Positions 1 to 6,806 of a stretch of DNA of 64,000 nucleotides are shown here, piece after piece. Position 1 is the stretch's first letter, and each line of letters begins with the position of its first letter. This DNA is from an uncultured Pseudomonadota bacterium. GTDB lineage: Bacteria > Desulfobacterota > Binatia > Binatales > Binataceae. A program made the position numbers and the translations under genes. The notes beneath the pieces were generated by a model. It worked only from the letters and a program-made list of their open reading frames with translations, was not told the DNA's origin and did no database searches. Location: NCBI GenBank assembly GCA_963837035.1, contig CAWIMH010000035.1:20319-84318 (forward strand), in the 5' to 3' direction.

Positions 1-69
1 TCGCAGCGACGGTAAAGGGGAAACACTCACGCGTCCTGCCAAGAGCGAGTCGAAGCAACGATCGCCCGC

Positions 70-270
70 ATGGCGGCCGGGAAACCTGCCGGCGACGGCG
101 ACACCGACGACGAAGAGCGTTTCTGTACACATGCCGATAACTGCGTGGAAGAAATGACTCAGGCGAAAATGGCGCTGGACGCGGAGGAGCGTCACGGTCA
201 TTTGATTCGCGCGCTCGGCCACGCGGTGCACTGCATAAAGACGCACGAGAAGATGTCAAAAAAGAAGTAG
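70..270 (+). CDS. hypothetical small Cys/His-rich protein (66 aa)
   Basis: ORF with ATG start; no recognisable homology; first of several small Cys/His-containing ORFs at the left end. Confidence 0.25.
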   Translation: MAAGKPAGDGDTDDEERFCTHADNCVEEMTQAKMALDAEERHGHLIRALGHAVHCIKTHEKMSKKK

Positions 271-475
271 GTCGGTTGCCTTCCTCGCTTCACGACCTTG
301 GGGCAGCGTGCAGCAGTGCCACGCGGCTGAATCCCGCAGGCTCTCCGGGGATCAGCCAGCTCCCGCCTAATTTGATCGAGCTGGCTCGCGTGTACCTGTA
401 ATACGCGCGAAAAAGGGGACACGGAGGAATTGCTCACCTCCGCCTCCCCGCCACACTCCATATCCGGGGTGAACT

Positions 476-703
476 ATGGCTTTTGATGATTACGGACTAG
501 CGAATGGGCTCGACGGCGCCGAGCAAAGCCGGCGCTGCGTCGTTTGTAAAAAGGATCGTGCCTTCAACTGGCCGATCTCGAAAGTCTGCTCCGGCTGCGC
601 CGCGAAAAAACCGGAATCAAAGGCATCAGCCCCGGCTGAGAAACCATTCAAGCCTCATCGCCGCGCCGTGTTTTTTCCCGGTGAAGGAAGACGATCGCTA
701 TGA
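476..703 (+). CDS. small zinc-ribbon protein (CxxC...CxxC), hypothetical
   Basis: 75-aa ORF with CVVCKK...W...CSGCAAK motif (C-x2-C-x13-C-x2-C with conserved Trp); stop overlaps next ORF start (ATGA). Confidence 0.4.
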   Translation: MAFDDYGLANGLDGAEQSRRCVVCKKDRAFNWPISKVCSGCAAKKPESKASAPAEKPFKPHRRAVFFPGEGRRSL

Positions 704-1236
704 AACGCGCACTTGTTTGTAAACGCGGCCACGACGCTTGGAAGTTTGACGGCTGCGGCGTGCGCTATTGCGGAGAGTGTCGGCGGATTCGAGTCGAAAG
801 ATATACTGCCTCCTCCGCTCGAAGCGTACCGCGTGAAGTGATTCGCCAGCGTCGGATTGATCTGCTGAAAAAGTTCGGCTGGTTTTTGCATGCTAACGAT
901 GGTGACGACGCCGCCCATATGACGCCCAATTTAGAGTTGGCGCTGAATGGCAGCCGCGCGCACTGGGGCGACTTCATGCGCAAGATGCGCCTAAGAATGT
1001 GCGCCGACCGTTGCGAGCGCTGCACGATTTTAAAGTCGACCTTCAGTGATTTTCCAAACTTCAGATGCTGGGATGTTTCGTGCCCGGTGCGGACGACCGC
1101 CGTCTCCGAAGAAGATCTCGACCGCATCGCCTATGAGTTTGGAAATTTCGGTGCGCTAATCGCGGGCTTGACCTCGATCTCCGAAACGATAGGCGATGGT
1201 AACCGCAGGACACCGGGAGGGCACGCTCGTGTCTAA
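700..1236 (+). CDS. Cys-rich zinc-finger protein, possibly HNH-like nuclease fold; hypothetical
   Basis: 178-aa ORF; N-terminal CKRGHDAW...CGVRYCGEC zinc-ribbon paralogous to neighbours; later AHMTP...NGS...AHW...CADRCERC resembles an HNH arrangement (H-x2-P ... N ... H + CxxC) but does not match the canonical spacing. Confidence 0.4.
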   Translation: MKRALVCKRGHDAWKFDGCGVRYCGECRRIRVERYTASSARSVPREVIRQRRIDLLKKFGWFLHANDGDDAAHMTPNLELALNGSRAHWGDFMRKMRLRMCADRCERCTILKSTFSDFPNFRCWDVSCPVRTTAVSEEDLDRIAYEFGNFGALIAGLTSISETIGDGNRRTPGGHARV

Positions 1237-1384
1237 TCTATGTAAACGGTGCGGCAGCGATGATTGGACTATGCGGGGCACTGGCCACCATCCCTTTTGT
1301 AGCGAGTGCGCTCGGCAACGCTCGCGGAAAGCCTATCGATTGAAGCATCCCGACGCTAAAGTATCGGCCGGCACGGCGCAGTAG
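1196..1384 (+). CDS. small zinc-ribbon protein (CKRCG...W...CSECA), hypothetical
   Basis: 62-aa ORF; same C-x2-C-x(11-14)-C-x2-C + Trp pattern as 476..703 and the N-terminus of 700..1236; an internal GTG at 1229 would give a 51-aa product. Confidence 0.35.
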   Translation: MVTAGHREGTLVSNLCKRCGSDDWTMRGTGHHPFCSECARQRSRKAYRLKHPDAKVSAGTAQ

Positions 1385-1938
1385 ATATGGCGGTGAACTA
1401 TGTGGGCATGGACATAATAACTGGCGCACCGATTCCTCGCCGACTCAAATCGTCCGCAAATGTATCGACTGCGGCAGCGGTGCGCGCAAGCACGGGCGCG
1501 CGCGCGGGCTCCGGCCCGGTGAACTGATCGCGGAAGCGGAAGCACCGCTACCGCTCGATCGAAAGGCGCTGCTGCGAAAGATCTGGGCTGAAATTCAAAT
1601 GGATCGCCATGCCCCGGACGAATAAGCCGGGGCTATAGGCACCCCGGCTATTATTTACGATGAGGACGCCGCGCTACTTCAGGCCAATCTTCTTCGGCGG
1701 TGGGCTCGTCGATCCGAGCGGCGTTGTCGGATAGTGCTTCGACGATCGGATCGACCGCCGTGCGTTTGCCAAATAGACCCCTGATTGACCTTCCTTCTCG
1801 GCTCCTTCGAGTTTCGCAATCTAGCGCATTGCACTGAAGCTGTTGCTTCTTTTGTGCGATTTAGCTTATTCGGAAGTATCGAGTCCGTGTTTAGCCGCCC
1901 GCTCAGAGAAGCGACCAAAATTGGTAACGCTCTTACGT

Positions 1939-2403
1939 TTAATGCGACCTTGCCGGAGTCCCTCGACAATGGAACTGATCAAATCTCGCTCGCCAATGTT
2001 CCCCAAACTTTTGCTGCTCTCGAAAAATGCGCCCGGCCAACTCAACTAAGCGTTGCGCACTGATTTCGGAAATGTCCCGATGAATTCCGTTGACCTCAGG
2101 ATCGGCTGTGTTCCCAGGAATGCTAACTAGTCTGAACCCCAAGTCGAACACCACCGATTCCGGAAAAAGGACGTAATCAAAGCGATCGTACTTGCCTCGT
2201 GCGATTACCAGCGCGGCAGCTATCCGCAACAGGTTCGTGTTGTCATCCTTTTCGACCGAGTAGACTGAAATCGTATTGTTCGAAGTTGTGAGATCGCTCA
2301 AAGGCTCTGCTCCAAATTCCCCTGCTCGCAGCCATGGATGGGGATCGGGGTTATATAGATCCCAGGCCAGCAAGTGATTGAGTTTTCGCAGCAGAAGAGG
2401 CAC
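1939..2403 (-). CDS. hypothetical protein (154 aa), last gene of low-GC minus-strand cluster
   Basis: ORF in a roughly 50% GC island; no recognisable domain. Confidence 0.3.
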   Translation of the reverse strand: MPLLLRKLNHLLAWDLYNPDPHPWLRAGEFGAEPLSDLTTSNNTISVYSVEKDDNTNLLRIAAALVIARGKYDRFDYVLFPESVVFDLGFRLVSIPGNTADPEVNGIHRDISEISAQRLVELAGRIFREQQKFGEHWRARFDQFHCRGTPARSH

Positions 2404-2512
2404 TGCTTAGGAACGAAGTTCAGCGAGAGAGTTATTAAGAGCCATTTTGCAAAGCGGCCGCTTTTCAAGGTTAACAGCGCGCTCCAAAAATAGAATGGCG
2501 CGCTTATCGCCC

Positions 2513-2875
2513 TTAGCAGGCCTCAAACCCAAGCCGGCTGCTTCTCTCACTGATTGGCGACGGATGAGTCAGGCATCTGCGAAGGAGATGCATCCTGGCT
2601 TCTTGAGTGTTTGGGTCACTCATTCTTCCGAGTTCACGCAGCCCCTCCCCAAGGATGGTGATGCTGCTTCCCTCACCAAAACAGAATCTCTCGAATACTT
2701 TTATTCCGATTCCACGGTATCTCAGGATGAACTTCCGAAATTCGTCCGCGAATGCCATAGCACCATCAGTTTCCAGGCTCATCGGAAAGCAGAGCAGCGG
2801 CGGCACAAAAATCCTCTCTAGCAAACTCCAATAGGGTGTCTTCATCCGGGGACGTAGAAGCCTCTGCCAATTCAA
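2513..2875 (-). CDS. hypothetical protein (about 120 aa; TTG start, possibly shorter from ATG 2758)
   Basis: minus-strand ORF overlapping the 3' end of 2766..3140 in another frame; may be a separate gene or the frameshifted continuation of the upstream ORF. Confidence 0.25.
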   Translation of the reverse strand: MNWQRLLRPRMKTPYWSLLERIFVPPLLCFPMSLETDGAMAFADEFRKFILRYRGIGIKVFERFCFGEGSSITILGEGLRELGRMSDPNTQEARMHLLRRCLTHPSPISERSSRLGFEAC

Positions 2876-3140
2876 CTCTCTTCAGCATTTCCGTTAATGA
2901 ACGCTCTACAATCGCATGGAACTCCTCCCACGGCAGAACGGGTTGGAACATATGAGTCACAAAGTATGTACTCTCCAGCCCTGAAGGAACGCTATACCAA
3001 GGTTGAAAAGATTTATAAGCCGAAATCTGGTTGCGTAAGAAAACATTGGCATATTGGCCGTTGATTGACCCAGTGAAAAAGGGAGGCGAGGAAATGCTCG
3101 ATACGTTGAGCGCAAAAGAATTTGAGCATGCAGCAAACAT
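2766..3140 (-). CDS. hypothetical protein (124 aa)
   Basis: minus-strand ORF in the low-GC island, protein-like composition; no SD recognised. Confidence 0.3.
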   Translation of the reverse strand: MFAACSNSFALNVSSISSPPFFTGSINGQYANVFLRNQISAYKSFQPWYSVPSGLESTYFVTHMFQPVLPWEEFHAIVERSLTEMLKRVELAEASTSPDEDTLLEFAREDFCAAAALLSDEPGN

Positions 3141-3203
3141 GGCGGCGCGATTAGAACAACATCAGCCCAGAGTTGCTGACTCGCATTTATTTTGGAGAGC
3201 GAC

Positions 3204-3362
3204 TCATGGACGGCTGATAGCCTTGCTGACCGTGCCAACCCATTCGGCATTAAGAATAGCGGTGTGAGAAGCCGCCTCGGCGAACTTGAGTGCGGACTTT
3301 TCGTAAGCCTCTGTAACCGCTTCGGCGAGTTTGAGTGGAGACGGTTTGTTAGTCTCTGTCAC
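3204..3362 (-). CDS. small repeat-containing protein (52 aa), translationally coupled to upstream gene
   Basis: GTG start overlaps the TGA stop of 3359..4126 (GTGA); the product MTETNKPSPLKLAEAVTEAYEKSALKFAEAASHTAILNAEWVGTVSKAISRP contains an internal peptide repeat encoded by an imperfect tandem DNA repeat; it is below the ORF-track length cutoff. Confidence 0.3.
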   Translation of the reverse strand: MTETNKPSPLKLAEAVTEAYEKSALKFAEAASHTAILNAEWVGTVSKAISRP

Positions 3363-4126
3363 TTGACGTCACCTTGTTCGGCAATTTGGTTGGCTAGTTC
3401 AATAAATTCGCCAAACACTTTGGGCATATTCTCAGCCAGAATTTCGCCTTGATAATCCTGAGCGGTATTTATGTCGAGTTCGAGCCTACAGACAGGCCTC
3501 GCCGAAGGTGAAACAGATGCAACCTGTCTCGGAATTTGAGGGTTGGCGACTGTCAACGACATGAGAGTTGGTTGGACAACTCCCCAGGTAGACAAACGGT
3601 TGATTCTAAGCCCTTCCATTCCAGGTACGTGAGACAATCTCGGTCGGTTTATGCGGTACATAAAATCAAAGGATTCACCGACATCCAACGTAACCGAGGC
3701 TAGGTAATGTTGGAGTACTTCATGCCCCTTGGCCACGGTTTCTACGGGCTGAATCAGCTCGACTCCCAAGGCCAATCGAGTCGCTGGCGGCGAGATTGGG
3801 AACCAGCTTTCCAACAGGTTGGAGAACGTTTCCATGGTTCCTTGATGCGGGCCAAGTGTTGCGAGATCTTCCTCTTCCGAATCGACTTTATCTATCGCTT
3901 GCCAAATCCAATCTATGCGGTCCGGTAAAGAAACGAGGTACAGTTTCCCGGCATGAAAATTGGCTTCCTGTCGCAAGAAGCCTCGCGGACGCTGTCTGAT
4001 CACAGACTCTGCCTCGGAACCGATAACCTTTTGCCACCAGGATTCTGTTTCCTGGACCACTACGGCCGGAAAAGTCGAAAGCCTTATGTGTCGCGTGAGC
4101 CAGGGCAAGTCGTCATCCTCCGTCAC
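3359..4126 (-). CDS. hypothetical protein (255 aa), first gene of low-GC minus-strand operon
   Basis: long clean ORF with ATG start, about 50% GC against about 63% in the surroundings; no recognisable catalytic motif. Confidence 0.5.
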   Translation of the reverse strand: MTEDDDLPWLTRHIRLSTFPAVVVQETESWWQKVIGSEAESVIRQRPRGFLRQEANFHAGKLYLVSLPDRIDWIWQAIDKVDSEEEDLATLGPHQGTMETFSNLLESWFPISPPATRLALGVELIQPVETVAKGHEVLQHYLASVTLDVGESFDFMYRINRPRLSHVPGMEGLRINRLSTWGVVQPTLMSLTVANPQIPRQVASVSPSARPVCRLELDINTAQDYQGEILAENMPKVFGEFIELANQIAEQGDVK

Positions 4127-4195
4127 TATTCGAAAAATCCACAGGTTCTTGGCAGAGGCTGGTTACTAACAACATAACCTCTAGCACGCCTTTGA

Positions 4196-4207
4196 GACAA
4201 CGTACGT
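4196..4207. promoter_or_regulatory. 12-bp perfect palindrome CAACGTACGTTG about 70 bp upstream of the minus-strand operon start (candidate operator)
   Basis: perfect dyad symmetry seen directly in the sequence; its position relative to the start codon at 4126 is consistent with a promoter or operator. Confidence 0.3.
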
Positions 4208-4814
4208 TGTAATGGACTCAACCCCAATTCGCGAGACCTTGGATACTCTTCTTCAGTGCGCCGAAGGTTCAAGCGAGGTACCAGGGTGATTGAGAAAATG
4301 CGCCAAAAACCCAGAATTTTCAAAGAGAATTAGCGGCGCGCCTGATTACGGGCTTGCCCGGCCGTTCCACGGTCAGACGTCCCTCGGCTTCCGCGTCGAC
4401 GCTAGAAACAACGCTCAGGTCGGGATACAGGCCGTTTAGGCCGAATCGTGATTCGGGGCGGAAAAATGTACTCCTGTGGCACAAAACGAAAATAGGCCAA
4501 CCCTCACTAGGGAGCCGGCGACGGCCGGATCGCGGCTCCGACCGCTGAATTGCTCGCGCTGCCGCAGTTGTCCGTACATCCCGAAATCGCTTGGGCGGAC
4601 GTTCTCGATCGCCTGCAGCCGTCATAAATTGAATATCGCGAGCGTGTGACCACTGCGCGAGAATGGACTCTGGTTGAGCGGGTATCTTCGAGCGACTGCT
4701 TACGTTTGGTAATGTTCGGGCCGTAGCTCTCGGTCGGACGGGAGTTGTCGCAAAATTATGTCCTCTCCAACCCAAAAACATCGCCTGGGTCGAGCTAAAT
4801 AGGAGAACCCCTGT

Positions 4815-6107
4815 ATGAAGCGAAGCCGAGTCACTCCCGTATGCCTTTTGGTCGGCACTGTCGTGTTCATTTTTACGTTGCAAAGAAGCGATTCCTTAGC
4901 AAAAACGCCAACGCCGAATCGCTCACATGCTGGTGTCGAGGCAACTAACATTCCGCCCTCAACTCAAATGACCTCCTCCTCAAATGCTTCGAGCGCGGAA
5001 TCTCCGGAACAGGTGCGTCGCATAGCGCGTGAAGAGGTCGAGCTGCATTTGCACGGAATAGGGGAGGCCACGATTGCCGCCGTCATCGAGGGGGCACGCG
5101 AAAATGAGCACACTATGTCTTATGTTTCTTGGGTTGCCTCGATATGGATTGCTCTGTTCACACTTATCGTCGGGGCAGCAGGCGCGTTTCTCTATGGCGA
5201 GGTAGGCATTCTCAAAAAAGCAAAAGAAGAGGCGCAAGCAGCAAGTGAAACTTCAAAAGCCCTGCTGGCTCAGGCAGTTAAGGCTAAGGACGAGGCCGAG
5301 GCGTCAAGCTCGAAAGTGCACGCGGCCGAGGAGGACGCCAAGTTAGCTGCGAGCCGCCTTAGAGCATTCGATGAGGCCAGCAAAAATGCTTTGGCCGATA
5401 TTGATAACTATCACAAGAATTTGCCGTCGGTAGAATCGCCGACCGTCCTAGGGAGCCAGCCCGAACTGCCGCCTATCGACCACGTCATGCAGATGGAAGA
5501 GGCCGATATCCTAACGGTTCTGGGCGAGAAAATCCGACCGCAACCGCCCAAACAACTCGCGCTCGCGTTTCTCTCCTTGGGAAAATACTGGAGACAAATC
5601 GAGAACTATCCTCGTGCACTCACACGGTATCAGAAGGCGGCAACTCTCGACCCAGAATCGTGGGAGCCGCTGGAAGGCTTAGCGCGAGTGGCGACGGAAC
5701 GCGCGCTTGAGGAGGGGCTCACTCCCGAAGCAAGAGAAAGACTATTGTCTCAGGCAAAGATATGGGCAGAAGCCGCCTTCGGAATAGACGACGAGCAACC
5801 AAAAACCGTTTACGACTTGGGCCGCATCGCCCACGTCCGAGGTCATTTTGGAGCCGCAATCGAATTTTATAAACGAGCGCAGGTTCTGGACATTAAGCAG
5901 GAGCGTTTAGAGAATATTTACAACCTAGCCTGCCTTTATGCGCATGACGTAGTGGACTTCGAGAGCGCCATTCAAGAGCTTGAGAAATTCAAAGGACGCG
6001 ACAAAGTGCGAGAACTAGTTGCGAAGGATAGCGATTTCGACGGGTTGAGGGCCGACCCGCAATTTGCCGCTAGACTCTCAGCATTATGGCCTACGAACGG
6101 TCCTTGA
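4815..6107 (+). CDS. membrane-anchored coiled-coil / TPR-like repeat protein, hypothetical
   Basis: 430-aa ORF with a good RBS (AGGAGA 9 nt upstream of ATG). It has an N-terminal hydrophobic anchor, a second TM segment (WVASIWIALFTLIVGAAGAFLYG), an Ala/Glu/Lys-rich coiled-coil and C-terminal TPR-like helical repeats. Confidence 0.6.
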   Translation: MKRSRVTPVCLLVGTVVFIFTLQRSDSLAKTPTPNRSHAGVEATNIPPSTQMTSSSNASSAESPEQVRRIAREEVELHLHGIGEATIAAVIEGARENEHTMSYVSWVASIWIALFTLIVGAAGAFLYGEVGILKKAKEEAQAASETSKALLAQAVKAKDEAEASSSKVHAAEEDAKLAASRLRAFDEASKNALADIDNYHKNLPSVESPTVLGSQPELPPIDHVMQMEEADILTVLGEKIRPQPPKQLALAFLSLGKYWRQIENYPRALTRYQKAATLDPESWEPLEGLARVATERALEEGLTPEARERLLSQAKIWAEAAFGIDDEQPKTVYDLGRIAHVRGHFGAAIEFYKRAQVLDIKQERLENIYNLACLYAHDVVDFESAIQELEKFKGRDKVRELVAKDSDFDGLRADPQFAARLSALWPTNGP

Positions 6108-6137
6108 GCGTGAATGAACGGTCCTTGAGCGTGAATG
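6096..6137. repeat. perfect 21-bp tandem duplication (AACGGTCCTTGAGCGTGAATG x2) spanning the stop codon of the TPR protein gene
   Basis: two identical adjacent 21-mers counted directly in the sequence. Confidence 0.85.
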
Positions 6138-6729
6138 ACTGTCGCAAGTTCTTCATTCCTGACTCTCCTGACGACAAATCTAAGCACTATTCCGCACTTC
6201 TGGTCAACGCCAGCAACGTTCCCGCCTCCCTGCTCGGCGGAGCACAATACTACCATCCTATCGGTCCTAGAGCCATCCGGGCCGACGCTGAACCTCTGTC
6301 AAATTTGACAGAAGTGGCCTGCCACGAACCCGAGGGGCTGCTTTCAATTCCGGGGCCCGGAAACGATGCCGTGGCCATTTACGAAAGCCTTGATCTCGCC
6401 CCCGATTTCATTGGATCACGCCGGGCAGACCCCGGCATCGGCACTAGACTAGCTCCGCCCATCCCTTCCGGGCGCTCCGAATCCGGGGCTGCTTTCTCGT
6501 CTGAACCCGCCCGCGCTTGCCCGTATACCGCCCTGTGTTGGCTCCTTCCGACCGGGGTAGGATCGTCGCCCGTCTGTTTGCTTAGGCCCCGCCTCGTCCT
6601 ATAAATTGCCCGGTTGGCCCCGTATGCTGCTCACTGCCAACAGACCGCCAACACGCTCCCTGCTACCAGCCTGGCGGTCGATGGCTGAAACTCGAATAAG
6701 TGGCCAGTTTACGAAGGTTTTTCGGCGCC

Positions 6730-6806
6730 GGGTCAGTAGCTCTAATTGGCAGAGCATCGGACTCCAAATCCGGGGGCTGCAGGTTCGAATCCTGCCTGAC
6801 CCGCCA
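6730..6806 (+). tRNA. trnW: tRNA-Trp (anticodon CCA)
   Basis: 77-nt cloverleaf: acceptor GGGTCAG/CTGACCC, D-arm GCTC-TAATTGGC-AGAGC, anticodon stem TCGGA/TCCGG with loop CTCCAAA, T-arm GCAGG-TTCGAAT-CCTGC, discriminator G and encoded CCA; lies at the conserved position just upstream of secE. Confidence 0.9.

Follow-up and report, generated by a model that had tools for sequence, protein, structure and literature searches.

The window, i.e. the whole 64,000-nucleotide stretch of contig CAWIMH010000035.1 analysed here, carries a cassette of three adjacent genes, designated A, B and C, on its minus strand between positions 4126 and 1866. Gene A is intact, while B and C are each disrupted by extra bases. 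The following features can be distinguished at this locus:

4197..4210, no strand: 14-bp palindrome ACAACGTACGTTGT, 71 nt upstream of the A start, with no role supported
3359..4126, minus strand: gene A, intact, encoding 255 aa; it is conserved and opens the cassette, with a predicted duplicated beta-alpha-beta4-alpha fold
2407..3362, minus strand: gene B, disrupted, with a GTG start; its N-terminal region is variable and carries repeats, and its C-terminal domain consists of HEAT repeats
3272..3359, minus strand: two tandem copies of a 45-nt repeat (TRF), encoding the repetitive N-terminus of B
3227, 3159 and 3156, minus strand: three extra bases, located by alignment to the independent assembly L006 and a repair test
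2775, minus strand: extra T (GAGCC[T]GGAAAC), the frameshift separating ORFs 2766-3140 and 2513-2875
2551, 2522, 2513 and 2512, minus strand: four extra bases in the HEAT-coding end of B, located by alignment to L006 and a repair test
1866..2403, minus strand: gene C, disrupted, encoding a candidate toxin of ~178 aa; it holds ORF 1939-2403, beyond which the coding sequence changes frame and runs to 1866
2004, minus strand: extra G in a G run, frameshifting C after residue 133

Gene anatomy and the disruption of B and C

The initial annotation described this locus as a five-gene operon in which a 52-aa repeat peptide is translationally coupled to the preceding gene and two of the other genes overlap. 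All five ORFs occur at the coordinates it listed, but four of them are collinear pieces of just two genes, both of which are uninterrupted in all orthologous loci. The ORFs at 3204-3362 (52 aa), 2766-3140 (124 aa) and 2513-2875 (120 aa) are all pieces of B, and tblastn searches with intact orthologues as queries identified a further piece at 2413-2550, with the fragments of B spread over three frames. For example, L005_B, the orthologue from a close relative, yields HSPs in frames -1, -2 and -3 across the B gene of the window. What had been taken for two overlapping genes (2766-3140 and 2513-2875) is thus one frameshift within B. Both the GTGA overlap, in which the GTG start of B overlaps the stop of A, and the repeat are real, but the 52-aa peptide is the N-terminal fragment of B rather than the product of a separate gene. 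The stop of B and the start of C are 3 nt apart. In the intact orthologous loci, the order is A (~255 aa), B (175-335 aa, HEAT_2) and C (~160-200 aa). Given this collinearity, and the rejoining of the fragments by nine single-base deletions, we consider the existence of five separate genes extremely improbable.

Eight extra bases are found in B and one in C, within 1.5 kb. The frame is shifted between the extra bases at 3227 and 3156, and the 52-aa ORF ends at the TGA (3204-3206) which this shift creates. Deletion of the eight bases gives an uninterrupted B ORF of 315 aa that aligns to L005_B up to the C-terminus, while deletion of one G restores a C protein of 178 aa. The repaired C shares 63 % identity with L005_C, and the C-terminal half of the repaired B ~75 % identity with L005_B, with neither protein showing in-frame stops or a loss of conservation. 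The independent assembly L006, which is 97.8 % identical to the window, lacks all nine extra bases. Since L006 lacks these bases and their removal restores B and C, the breaks appear somewhat likelier to represent assembly error than genuine recent inactivation.

The alternative is that the window copy is a decaying remnant, in which C was frameshifted, B was subsequently lesioned and A was left as an orphan, so that B and C would be pseudogenes rather than parts of a working module. This has a reasonable, if lesser, chance of being correct. All nine frameshifting insertions fall in B and C. Intact reading frames were found for A, for the TPR gene and for every core gene checked in the window, and the same concentration would be expected of a dispensable cassette that is truly decaying. 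Toxin-antitoxin modules are expected to lose the toxin first and the antitoxin second, and lesions in C (the putative toxin) followed by lesions in B (the putative antitoxin) would fit this order. Against decay, the lesions are all insertions, with no deletions and no nonsense substitutions, and the repaired B and C are conserved to the same extent as intact orthologues. Furthermore, L006 is free of every lesion found in the window, yet carries other lesions that the window does not have, some of them in A and the TPR gene, a pattern which points to consensus errors. Between the window and L006 there are 52 indel events to about 90 substitutions, and ratios of this kind are typically seen in error-prone consensus sequence. 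An explanation of the indels by GATC methylation motifs was rejected, as the contexts around the differences revealed no excess on either side when the window and L006 were compared. For annotation, the lesson is that in this window a seeming operon of small novel genes consists of longer genes broken by single-base insertions.

The A, B and C families and their exchangeable partners

The A family comprises 3,789 clusters at 50 % identity. Neither the protein of the window nor its orthologues match any model in Pfam, NCBIfam, PADLOC or PHROGs, and an A alignment profile recovered nothing below E = 0.1 among PDB sequences. The concave sheet of A bears the motifs YRINR, NRLSTW and ELDINT. The strongly conserved polar motifs of A are located on adjacent beta-strands of the predicted fold, and could belong to a catalytic or ligand-binding site instead of a chaperone surface. 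An unlikely reading of A is that of an enzyme, rather than a chaperone or sensor, with an ATP- or ligand-binding beta-sheet like those of guanidino kinases, glutamine synthetase or AdoMetDC; as part of that same reading, the module would be controlled through modification of the gene 2 or gene 3 product, as in type VII toxin-antitoxin systems, or through the making or sensing of a small molecule. Identification of A as the Lamassu/ABC-3C middle component MComp1 (PF20289) was rejected, with a match in one of 27 A relatives at E = 0.16, which is at chance level; the cassette contains no ATPase gene corresponding to the SMC/ABC ATPase expected of these systems.

A is the first gene in 43 genomes from many phyla, and its stop usually overlaps the start of gene 2. 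Among the 41 loci with a called gene 2, the overlap is 4 nt in 33, variant types included. Gaps between genes 2 and 3 are short and overlaps frequent; between B and C they range mostly from -3 to +8 nt across 20 loci, with longer overlaps appearing where the automatic start call falls earlier.

Intact B orthologues match the Pfam HEAT_2 family at 3.7e-8 and 1e-6. HEAT repeats are the only domains found in them, and they have no DNA-binding domain (HTH, RHH, AbrB) of the kind seen in classical type II antitoxins. The N-terminal extension of the gene 2 products, about 30-150 aa long, is variable and of low complexity, and it diverges fast and gains repeats: in the region occupied by the tandem repeat in the window, L005_B and L001_B contain unrelated repeats (four copies of 9 aa and two copies of 49 aa, respectively). 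A Trp residue occurs within the first 30 residues in 24 of 38 gene 2 proteins (14.9 expected), in B-type and variant proteins alike, and on the strength of this sequence pattern the Trp-bearing segment may possibly serve as a docking element.

The only library match for C, from among Pfam, NCBIfam, PADLOC and PHROGs, is to phrog_10743, whose function is unannotated, and its alignment profile retrieved nothing below E = 0.1 from PDB sequences. The structural model of C (pLDDT 93.7) suggests a weak resemblance to the ADP-ribosyltransferase-fold toxins (RES/MbcT/ParT, DarT, Tpt1/KptA, Tse2), which are its best structural neighbours at scores below the usual significance; in a Foldseek comparison against the PDB, Tpt1 and DarT were the only non-trivial matches, neither of them significant. 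A strand-1 Arg and a strand-2 Ser are conserved in C as in these toxins (R7, at least 90 % conserved; S47, invariant), and in the model both are placed as in R-S-E ADP-ribosyltransferases. C differs from these toxins in lacking sequence or profile similarity to them, and the C alignment contains no conserved counterpart of the catalytic Glu, with T100, D102 and H109 (at least 90 % conserved) and N106 (invariant) found instead. The original observation that no protein of the locus shows a recognisable catalytic motif is therefore true at the sequence level, but must be qualified by the weak similarity of the C model to the ADP-ribosyltransferase fold.

B and C constitute genes 2 and 3 in 20 of the 43 genomic loci, while in fourteen others the pair bears no relation to B and C (hhalign probability below 1 %). 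The variant third genes include matches to RES (4e-9, above the Pfam cut-off), HEPN (2e-5, above the cut-off, and 4e-4) and PIN (2.6e-4 and 3.4e-4, just below the cut-off). RES, itself an ADP-ribosyltransferase-fold toxin, fills the operon position of C in locus L016, and the gene 2 preceding it shows a weak match to an Xre-like antitoxin HTH (E = 0.07). A is thus followed by B/C, by PIN, HEPN or RES pairs, and by at least one further pair without a family match. The cultured Acidithiobacillus ferrianus MG, for example, carries an A-gene 2-PIN cassette. In L047 and L049, A is directly followed by a C-like gene, with no B, and these C-like genes are the sole exception among the variant gene 2 and gene 3 proteins, which hhalign otherwise found unrelated to B and C, while in three Oscillatoria loci A and B are present and C is absent. 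A simple three-role model does not fit these five loci.

Base composition, genomic context and distribution

The drop in GC content that had been taken as a sign of foreign origin is real, at 0.47-0.53 between about 1.8 and 4.4 kb compared with 0.60-0.65 in the core of the window. The cassette (1870-4126) has a GC content of 0.507, against 0.607 for positions 7000-64000, and the GC3 of A is 0.53, against 0.77-0.83 for rpoB, rpoC, fusA, tuf and clpB. The operon lies 3-15 points below its flanks in all nineteen loci tested. In the closest relatives (L005, L050 and L052) the same cassette occupies unrelated contexts, as a neighbourhood comparison proposed at the outset revealed, and homology with L005 stops exactly at the cassette borders. 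Composition and comparative loci together support the original view of a foreign, tightly packed accessory module of proteins named by no library. Its hosts include Binatia, Acidobacteriota, Acidithiobacillus, Planctomycetes, Dehalococcoidia, Oscillatoria, Alphaproteobacteria, Spirochaetia and others, in a patchy distribution over many phyla.

Other signals attributed to the locus were not borne out. An operator had been proposed on the basis of the palindrome upstream of A, but the window contains seven perfect 14-mer palindromes against 4.8 in shuffled sequences, and 26 perfect 12-mers against 20.3, and the L005 orthologue, which is 60 % identical, has no such palindrome upstream. With counts near those of the shuffles and no conservation in L005, the palindrome is no more than expected by chance. 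Promoter and terminator scans likewise gave counts at the shuffle level. The cassette lies 5' of tRNA-Trp (6730-6806), the sole match in an Rfam scan of the whole window, at a distance of ~2.6 kb. Integration at this tRNA was rejected, with no duplicated, att-like tRNA 3' end in the window or L006, and no significance of the supposed tRNA or ribosomal-protein hotspot is supported.

Some neighbours of the cassette are restriction-modification, reverse-transcriptase, HNH-helicase, Toprim, capsid or excisionase genes; among the large neighbours examined, no more than about half are defence or mobility genes. The five ORFs of the window have no match in Pfam, NCBIfam or PADLOC, and against PADLOC-DB 2.0.0 the intact orthologues scored at chance level, apart from a generic HEAT-ARM match of B (2e-5). 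The PADLOC results would be consistent with a neutral or regulatory accessory operon, in which a HEAT scaffold is accompanied by two binding proteins and which happens to be horizontally mobile but takes no part in conflict, as would the metabolic genes that surround several loci and the searches of phage, plasmid and IMG/VR collections with A and C, which found no homologue. Such an operon is nonetheless improbable, considering that RES, HEPN and PIN are bona fide toxin domains which occupy the third position in variant loci that retain A and the gene overlap, that GC is below the flanks everywhere tested and the phyletic pattern very patchy, and that the gene 2 N-termini diverge rapidly and acquire repeats.

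Proposed function and comparison with known systems

The suggestion that the locus encodes an undescribed defence or toxin system stands in part: the comparative evidence, namely the PIN/HEPN/RES slot and the mobility of the cassette, points to a conflict system, whereas the five-gene, operator and hotspot reasoning is not supported. The widespread, unnamed cassette, of which no description was found in the literature, probably comprises a toxin-antitoxin-like pair and a conserved helper, serving in phage defence or as a selfish addiction element. On balance, we favour the interpretation of window positions 4126-1866 (minus strand) as a single copy of a mobile cassette of three genes (A-B-C, 2.2 kb), which would form a tripartite toxin-antitoxin-like module of the abortive-infection or addiction type. 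A more specific proposal, which we advance tentatively, is that A may be a new and very widespread type of third component, a chaperone or sensor other than SecB, in tripartite toxin-antitoxin defence modules, where it is combined with PIN, HEPN, RES and other warheads, with C being a hitherto unrecognised ADP-ribosyltransferase-fold toxin family checked by a HEAT-repeat antitoxin.

In the proposed mechanism, C would be the toxin, a member of a new family of ~175 aa whose model is like the ADP-ribosyltransferase-fold toxins, and B the neutraliser, holding C via its C-terminal HEAT-repeat domain and bearing a fast-evolving, probably disordered N-terminal extension. A would be the conserved accessory protein, translationally coupled to gene 2 and serving many unrelated gene 2/gene 3 pairs. 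By analogy with toxin-antitoxin-chaperone (TAC) systems, A may bind the extension of gene 2 and stabilise or monitor the gene 2 product; loss of this contact, for example through a competing phage protein, would free the toxin.

TAC systems (HigBAC, CmdTAC) have a proven phage-defence role, and CmdT of CmdTAC is an ADP-ribosyltransferase (bioRxiv 10.1101/2024.02.24.581848; PMC11618068; PMC6377645), the fold weakly resembled by C. Both TAC and the cassette consist of three genes, with a toxin-antitoxin 'warhead' (putative in the cassette) and a conserved third protein that is paired with several unrelated toxin-antitoxin families. The TAC antitoxin has an unstructured extension, as gene 2 has a variable, low-complexity one, but this is located at the C-terminus of the TAC antitoxin and at the N-terminus of the gene 2 product. 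The third component of TAC is SecB-like and encoded last, whereas A, with its duplicated fold and lack of a Pfam match, is not SecB-like and is encoded first.

Classical type II toxin-antitoxin systems (VapBC/PIN, HEPN-MNT, Xre-RES) share with the cassette small adjacent or overlapping genes, with the antitoxin preceding the toxin (these roles being putative here), and the PIN, HEPN or RES domain in the toxin position of the variant loci. They differ in that the cassette has an obligatory, translationally coupled upstream gene A, that B is a HEAT-repeat protein without a DNA-binding domain and that C falls outside the described toxin families. The Panacea-type hyperpromiscuous antitoxin domains similarly associate one conserved module with many unrelated toxin families (PMC8832971, PMC10440598). 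Panacea (DUF4065) is, however, the antitoxin domain itself, of two-gene systems (PMC8832971, PMC10440598), while A is a separate protein encoded upstream of the gene pair, without similarity to any Pfam family.

If the proposed model holds, an unlisted family with thousands of clusters would gain a role as the shared partner of many toxin-antitoxin warheads, and the A-based modules would represent a second, independent invention of the logic of SecB-based TAC systems. It would also add C as a new candidate toxin family, a kind of antitoxin built from HEAT repeats, and a set of testable model loci.

Composition and gene content of the cassette

Between approximately 1.8 and 4.4 kb the GC content is 0.47-0.53, against 0.60-0.65 over most of the window, and the cassette itself (1870-4126) has a value of 0.507 versus 0.607 for positions 7000-64000. 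With a GC3 of 0.53 in the 255-aa ORF, versus 0.77-0.83 in rpoB, rpoC, fusA, tuf and clpB, the low-GC island recognised in the initial annotation is borne out. The five minus-strand ORFs listed there are all present in the window sequence, the GTGA stop/start overlap behind the 255-aa ORF is legible, and the repeat character ascribed to the 52-aa ORF reflects an internal 45-nt x2 tandem repeat. Scans of all five against Pfam, NCBIfam and PADLOC gave no match, and ORF 1939-2403 matches one PHROG of unknown function (4e-9). Their reading as a five-gene operon did not hold, since tblastn of the window with the intact B and C proteins of L005, an orthologous locus, distinguished three genes:

4126-3359, minus strand: A, 255 aa
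3362-2407, minus strand: B, matched by L005 B in frames -1 (3131-2775), -2 (2773-2525) and -3 (2550-2413)
2403-1866, minus strand: C, matched by L005 C in frames -3 (2364-2002) and -1 (2030-1872)

As these matches are spread over shifted frames, the small ORFs map as pieces of B (3204-3362, 2766-3140 and 2513-2875) and as C with a 21-residue out-of-frame tail (1939-2403), judging from the alignments. The overlapping pair 2766-3140/2513-2875 thus represents one frameshifted gene rather than two, and the existence of five separate genes is refuted, its probability being negligible. Twenty-eight homologues of A (~253 aa) were found, and in every longer contig carrying one the start of the next gene overlaps the A stop. 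The B orthologues (175-335 aa) have a C-terminal HEAT_2 domain, and are followed by C orthologues (~160-200 aa) as third gene.

The lesions were assessed against L006, an independent ENA assembly of the same locus (L006 1-6738 versus window 1-6723), which shares 97.8 % identity with the window, with 52 indel events and some 90 substitutions between the two. The share of indels is far too high for ordinary divergence and typical of error-prone consensus sequence. The extra bases are as follows:

3227, 3159, 3156, 2775, 2551, 2522, 2513 and 2512, minus strand: eight extra bases in B, all absent from L006
2004, minus strand: single extra G in C, absent from L006

Removal of the eight bases restores an unbroken 315-aa B, alignable with L005 B to the C-terminus, and removal of G 2004 yields a 178-aa C with 63 % identity to L005 C across 175 residues. 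In L006, all three cassette genes and the adjacent TPR gene carry frameshifts different from those of the window, each sequence being in frame at places where the other is frameshifted, and rpoB, rpoC, fusA, tuf, tldD, pmbA, clpB, rplE and other core genes are full-length in the window. The low-GC island is clearly error-prone or strain-variable and the window core genes clean. Because the nine lesions are without exception insertions, nonsense substitutions are lacking and B and C are well conserved after repair, a local error of assembly, perhaps in an island that varies among strains, is modestly favoured over real pseudogenisation, a possible but less probable explanation that concerns the state of the window copy only. 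This copy may be defective or mis-assembled; under either reading, the A-B-C operon (4126 to 1866) was intact in the recent ancestral state.

The upstream palindrome proposed as an operator, perfect over 14 bp (ACAACGTACGTTGT, 4197-4210), was not found upstream of the A orthologue (60 % identical) in L005, and perfect 14-mer palindromes number seven in the window versus 4.8 in shuffles, so that an operator role is without support. A second such palindrome (AAAGCGGCCGCTTT, 2451-2464), which includes a NotI site and lies within the HEAT-coding end of B, is probably due to chance.

Exchange of the genes downstream of A

Scanning a single genome for each species yielded 43 loci with gene A. In 33 of the 41 loci with a called gene 2, the second gene of the cassette, there is a 4-nt overlap, with gene 2 starting 3 nt before the final base of the A stop codon. 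The genes that follow A are exchanged among loci.

Genes following A
B plus C: 20/43 loci
B only: 5/43 loci (two at contig end, three in Oscillatoria)
C-like gene directly: 2/43 loci
Gene pairs unrelated to B and C: 14/43 loci
Cut off or undetermined: 2/43 loci

Comparison of the 14 variant pairs with B and C using hhalign gave no relationship (probability below 1 %).

Third-gene matches in variant loci
L016: RES, 4e-9, above Pfam's cut-off
L033: HEPN, 2e-5, above cut-off
L039: HEPN, 4e-4
L010: PIN, 2.6e-4, just below cut-off
L017: PIN, 3.4e-4, just below cut-off
L021, L030, L034, L046: one further unknown family, common to all four

The gene 2 upstream of RES shows a weak match (E = 0.07) to the Xre-like antitoxin HTH, which normally accompanies RES. 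On the basis of the RES, HEPN and PIN matches, the third position appears to be a toxin slot, with the second as the predicted antitoxin site and A as the invariant partner; a non-conflict accessory operon is accordingly quite improbable. Reduced cassettes consist of A and B with no C on the same strand (Oscillatoria L022, L025 and L029), or of A and a longer C-like protein (209-220 aa) with no B (Syntrophaceae L047 and L049).

The N-terminal 30-150 residues of B are hypervariable and of low complexity, with independent tandem repeats of 15 aa x2 (window), 9 aa x4 (L005) and 49 aa x2 (L001), and precede a HEAT-like C-terminal region of about 130 residues. Tryptophan occurs among the first 30 residues of 24/38 gene-2 proteins versus 14.9 expected (~3 sd, relatedness of the proteins ignored). 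It is enriched at residues 6-30 with a peak at 18-19, often preceding an acidic or amide residue (for example, L005 2467-2560 and L021 8750-8840). Since the excess is present in B-type and unrelated gene-2 proteins alike, this tryptophan could serve A as a docking motif. That A is instead an enzyme or ligand-binding regulator is unlikely.

Distribution and genomic surroundings

An exhaustive profile search recovered relatives of A in 3,789 clusters at 50 % identity (E <= 1e-3), including 2,058 at E <= 1e-30. The 150 best matches listed are nearly all 240-280 aa, two being longer (291 and 342 aa), and none of them has an added domain. Hosts of the A loci include Binatia, Acidobacteriota, Rokubacteria, Acidithiobacillus, Planctomycetes, Spirochaetia, Alphaproteobacteria, Gammaproteobacteria, Dehalococcoidia and other Chloroflexota, Oscillatoria, Gemmatimonadota, Latescibacterota, Actinomycetota and Syntrophaceae. 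Transfer of the cassette as a whole is indicated by an operon GC 3-15 points under the flanks in 19/19 loci tested, by window-L005 homology ending at the cassette borders, and by the unrelated contexts of the closest relatives (L052, for instance, is flanked by recA and an aldehyde dehydrogenase gene). Searches of phage, plasmid and IMG/VR collections recovered no copies.

Defence or mobility genes beside some A-family cassettes include hsdM and a probable hsdS directly upstream of A-gene 2-PIN (L017 2510-7200), an Eco57I-like methylase (L033 5509-9754), a reverse transcriptase (L022 9954-12551), an RHH-HNH-ResIII protein (L029 7187-9577) and a 1184-aa Toprim protein (L010 10142-13696), with metabolic genes surrounding other loci. 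Around the window cassette lie:

476-1384, plus strand: three ORFs (75, 178 and 62 aa), overlapping or adjacent, in the adjoining island, zinc ribbon-like with abundant CxxC pairs, no family matches
4815-6107, plus strand: divergent 430-aa protein with hydrophobic N-terminal segment, Ala/Glu/Lys-rich middle and TPR repeats (TPR_END_plus, NF047558, 1.3e-9)
6095-6138: perfect 21-nt x2.1 tandem repeat across the TPR gene stop codon, just upstream of tRNA-Trp

The TPR gene is present in L006 and not beside the cassette in L005, L050 and L052, and on this synteny is not part of the module. L006 extends past the left window edge (L006 6738-13016), where it contains numerous short ORFs and a D5_N primase-like gene of 445 aa. 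From this content, window positions 1 to about 6700 appear to be part of a larger island, either mobile or phage-derived; neither an integrase nor an att repeat of tRNA-Trp was found.

Proposed mechanism and relation to known systems

Given the observed anatomy, coupling, partner exchange and mobility, a tripartite toxin-antitoxin-like module is somewhat favoured. In the roles we infer, C would be the toxin, possibly NAD+-dependent, and B would neutralise it via the HEAT domain. Translational coupling would produce A in fixed proportion with B, whose N-terminal extension A would bind as stabiliser or sensor, and disturbance of this contact would release the toxin, any defence function being equally conjectural. 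This model mirrors SecB-based toxin-antitoxin-chaperone (TAC) systems, where an aromatic pattern in the extension of the antitoxin serves as recognition signal for the chaperone and a phage structural protein acts as competitor for chaperone binding (bioRxiv 10.1101/2024.02.24.581848; PMC11618068; PMC6377645). However, A does not resemble SecB, the gene order is not that of TAC and the gene-2 extension is N-terminal, and by this comparison the cassette is not a member of the TAC group despite its predicted TAC-like working. Similarly, it contains a type II-like gene pair, but differs in its obligatory third gene and a putative antitoxin with no DNA-binding domain. It matches no PADLOC system, and no description was found in literature searches.

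In Acidithiobacillus ferrianus MG (L010; NZ_CP127523.1, 1711121-1727891), A-gene 2-PIN is accompanied by a fourth overlapping 152-aa gene, and this strain, being cultured and with a complete genome, is a practical experimental model. The cassette is not paradigm-changing, but offers a good lead, open to testing, on a large family without annotation.
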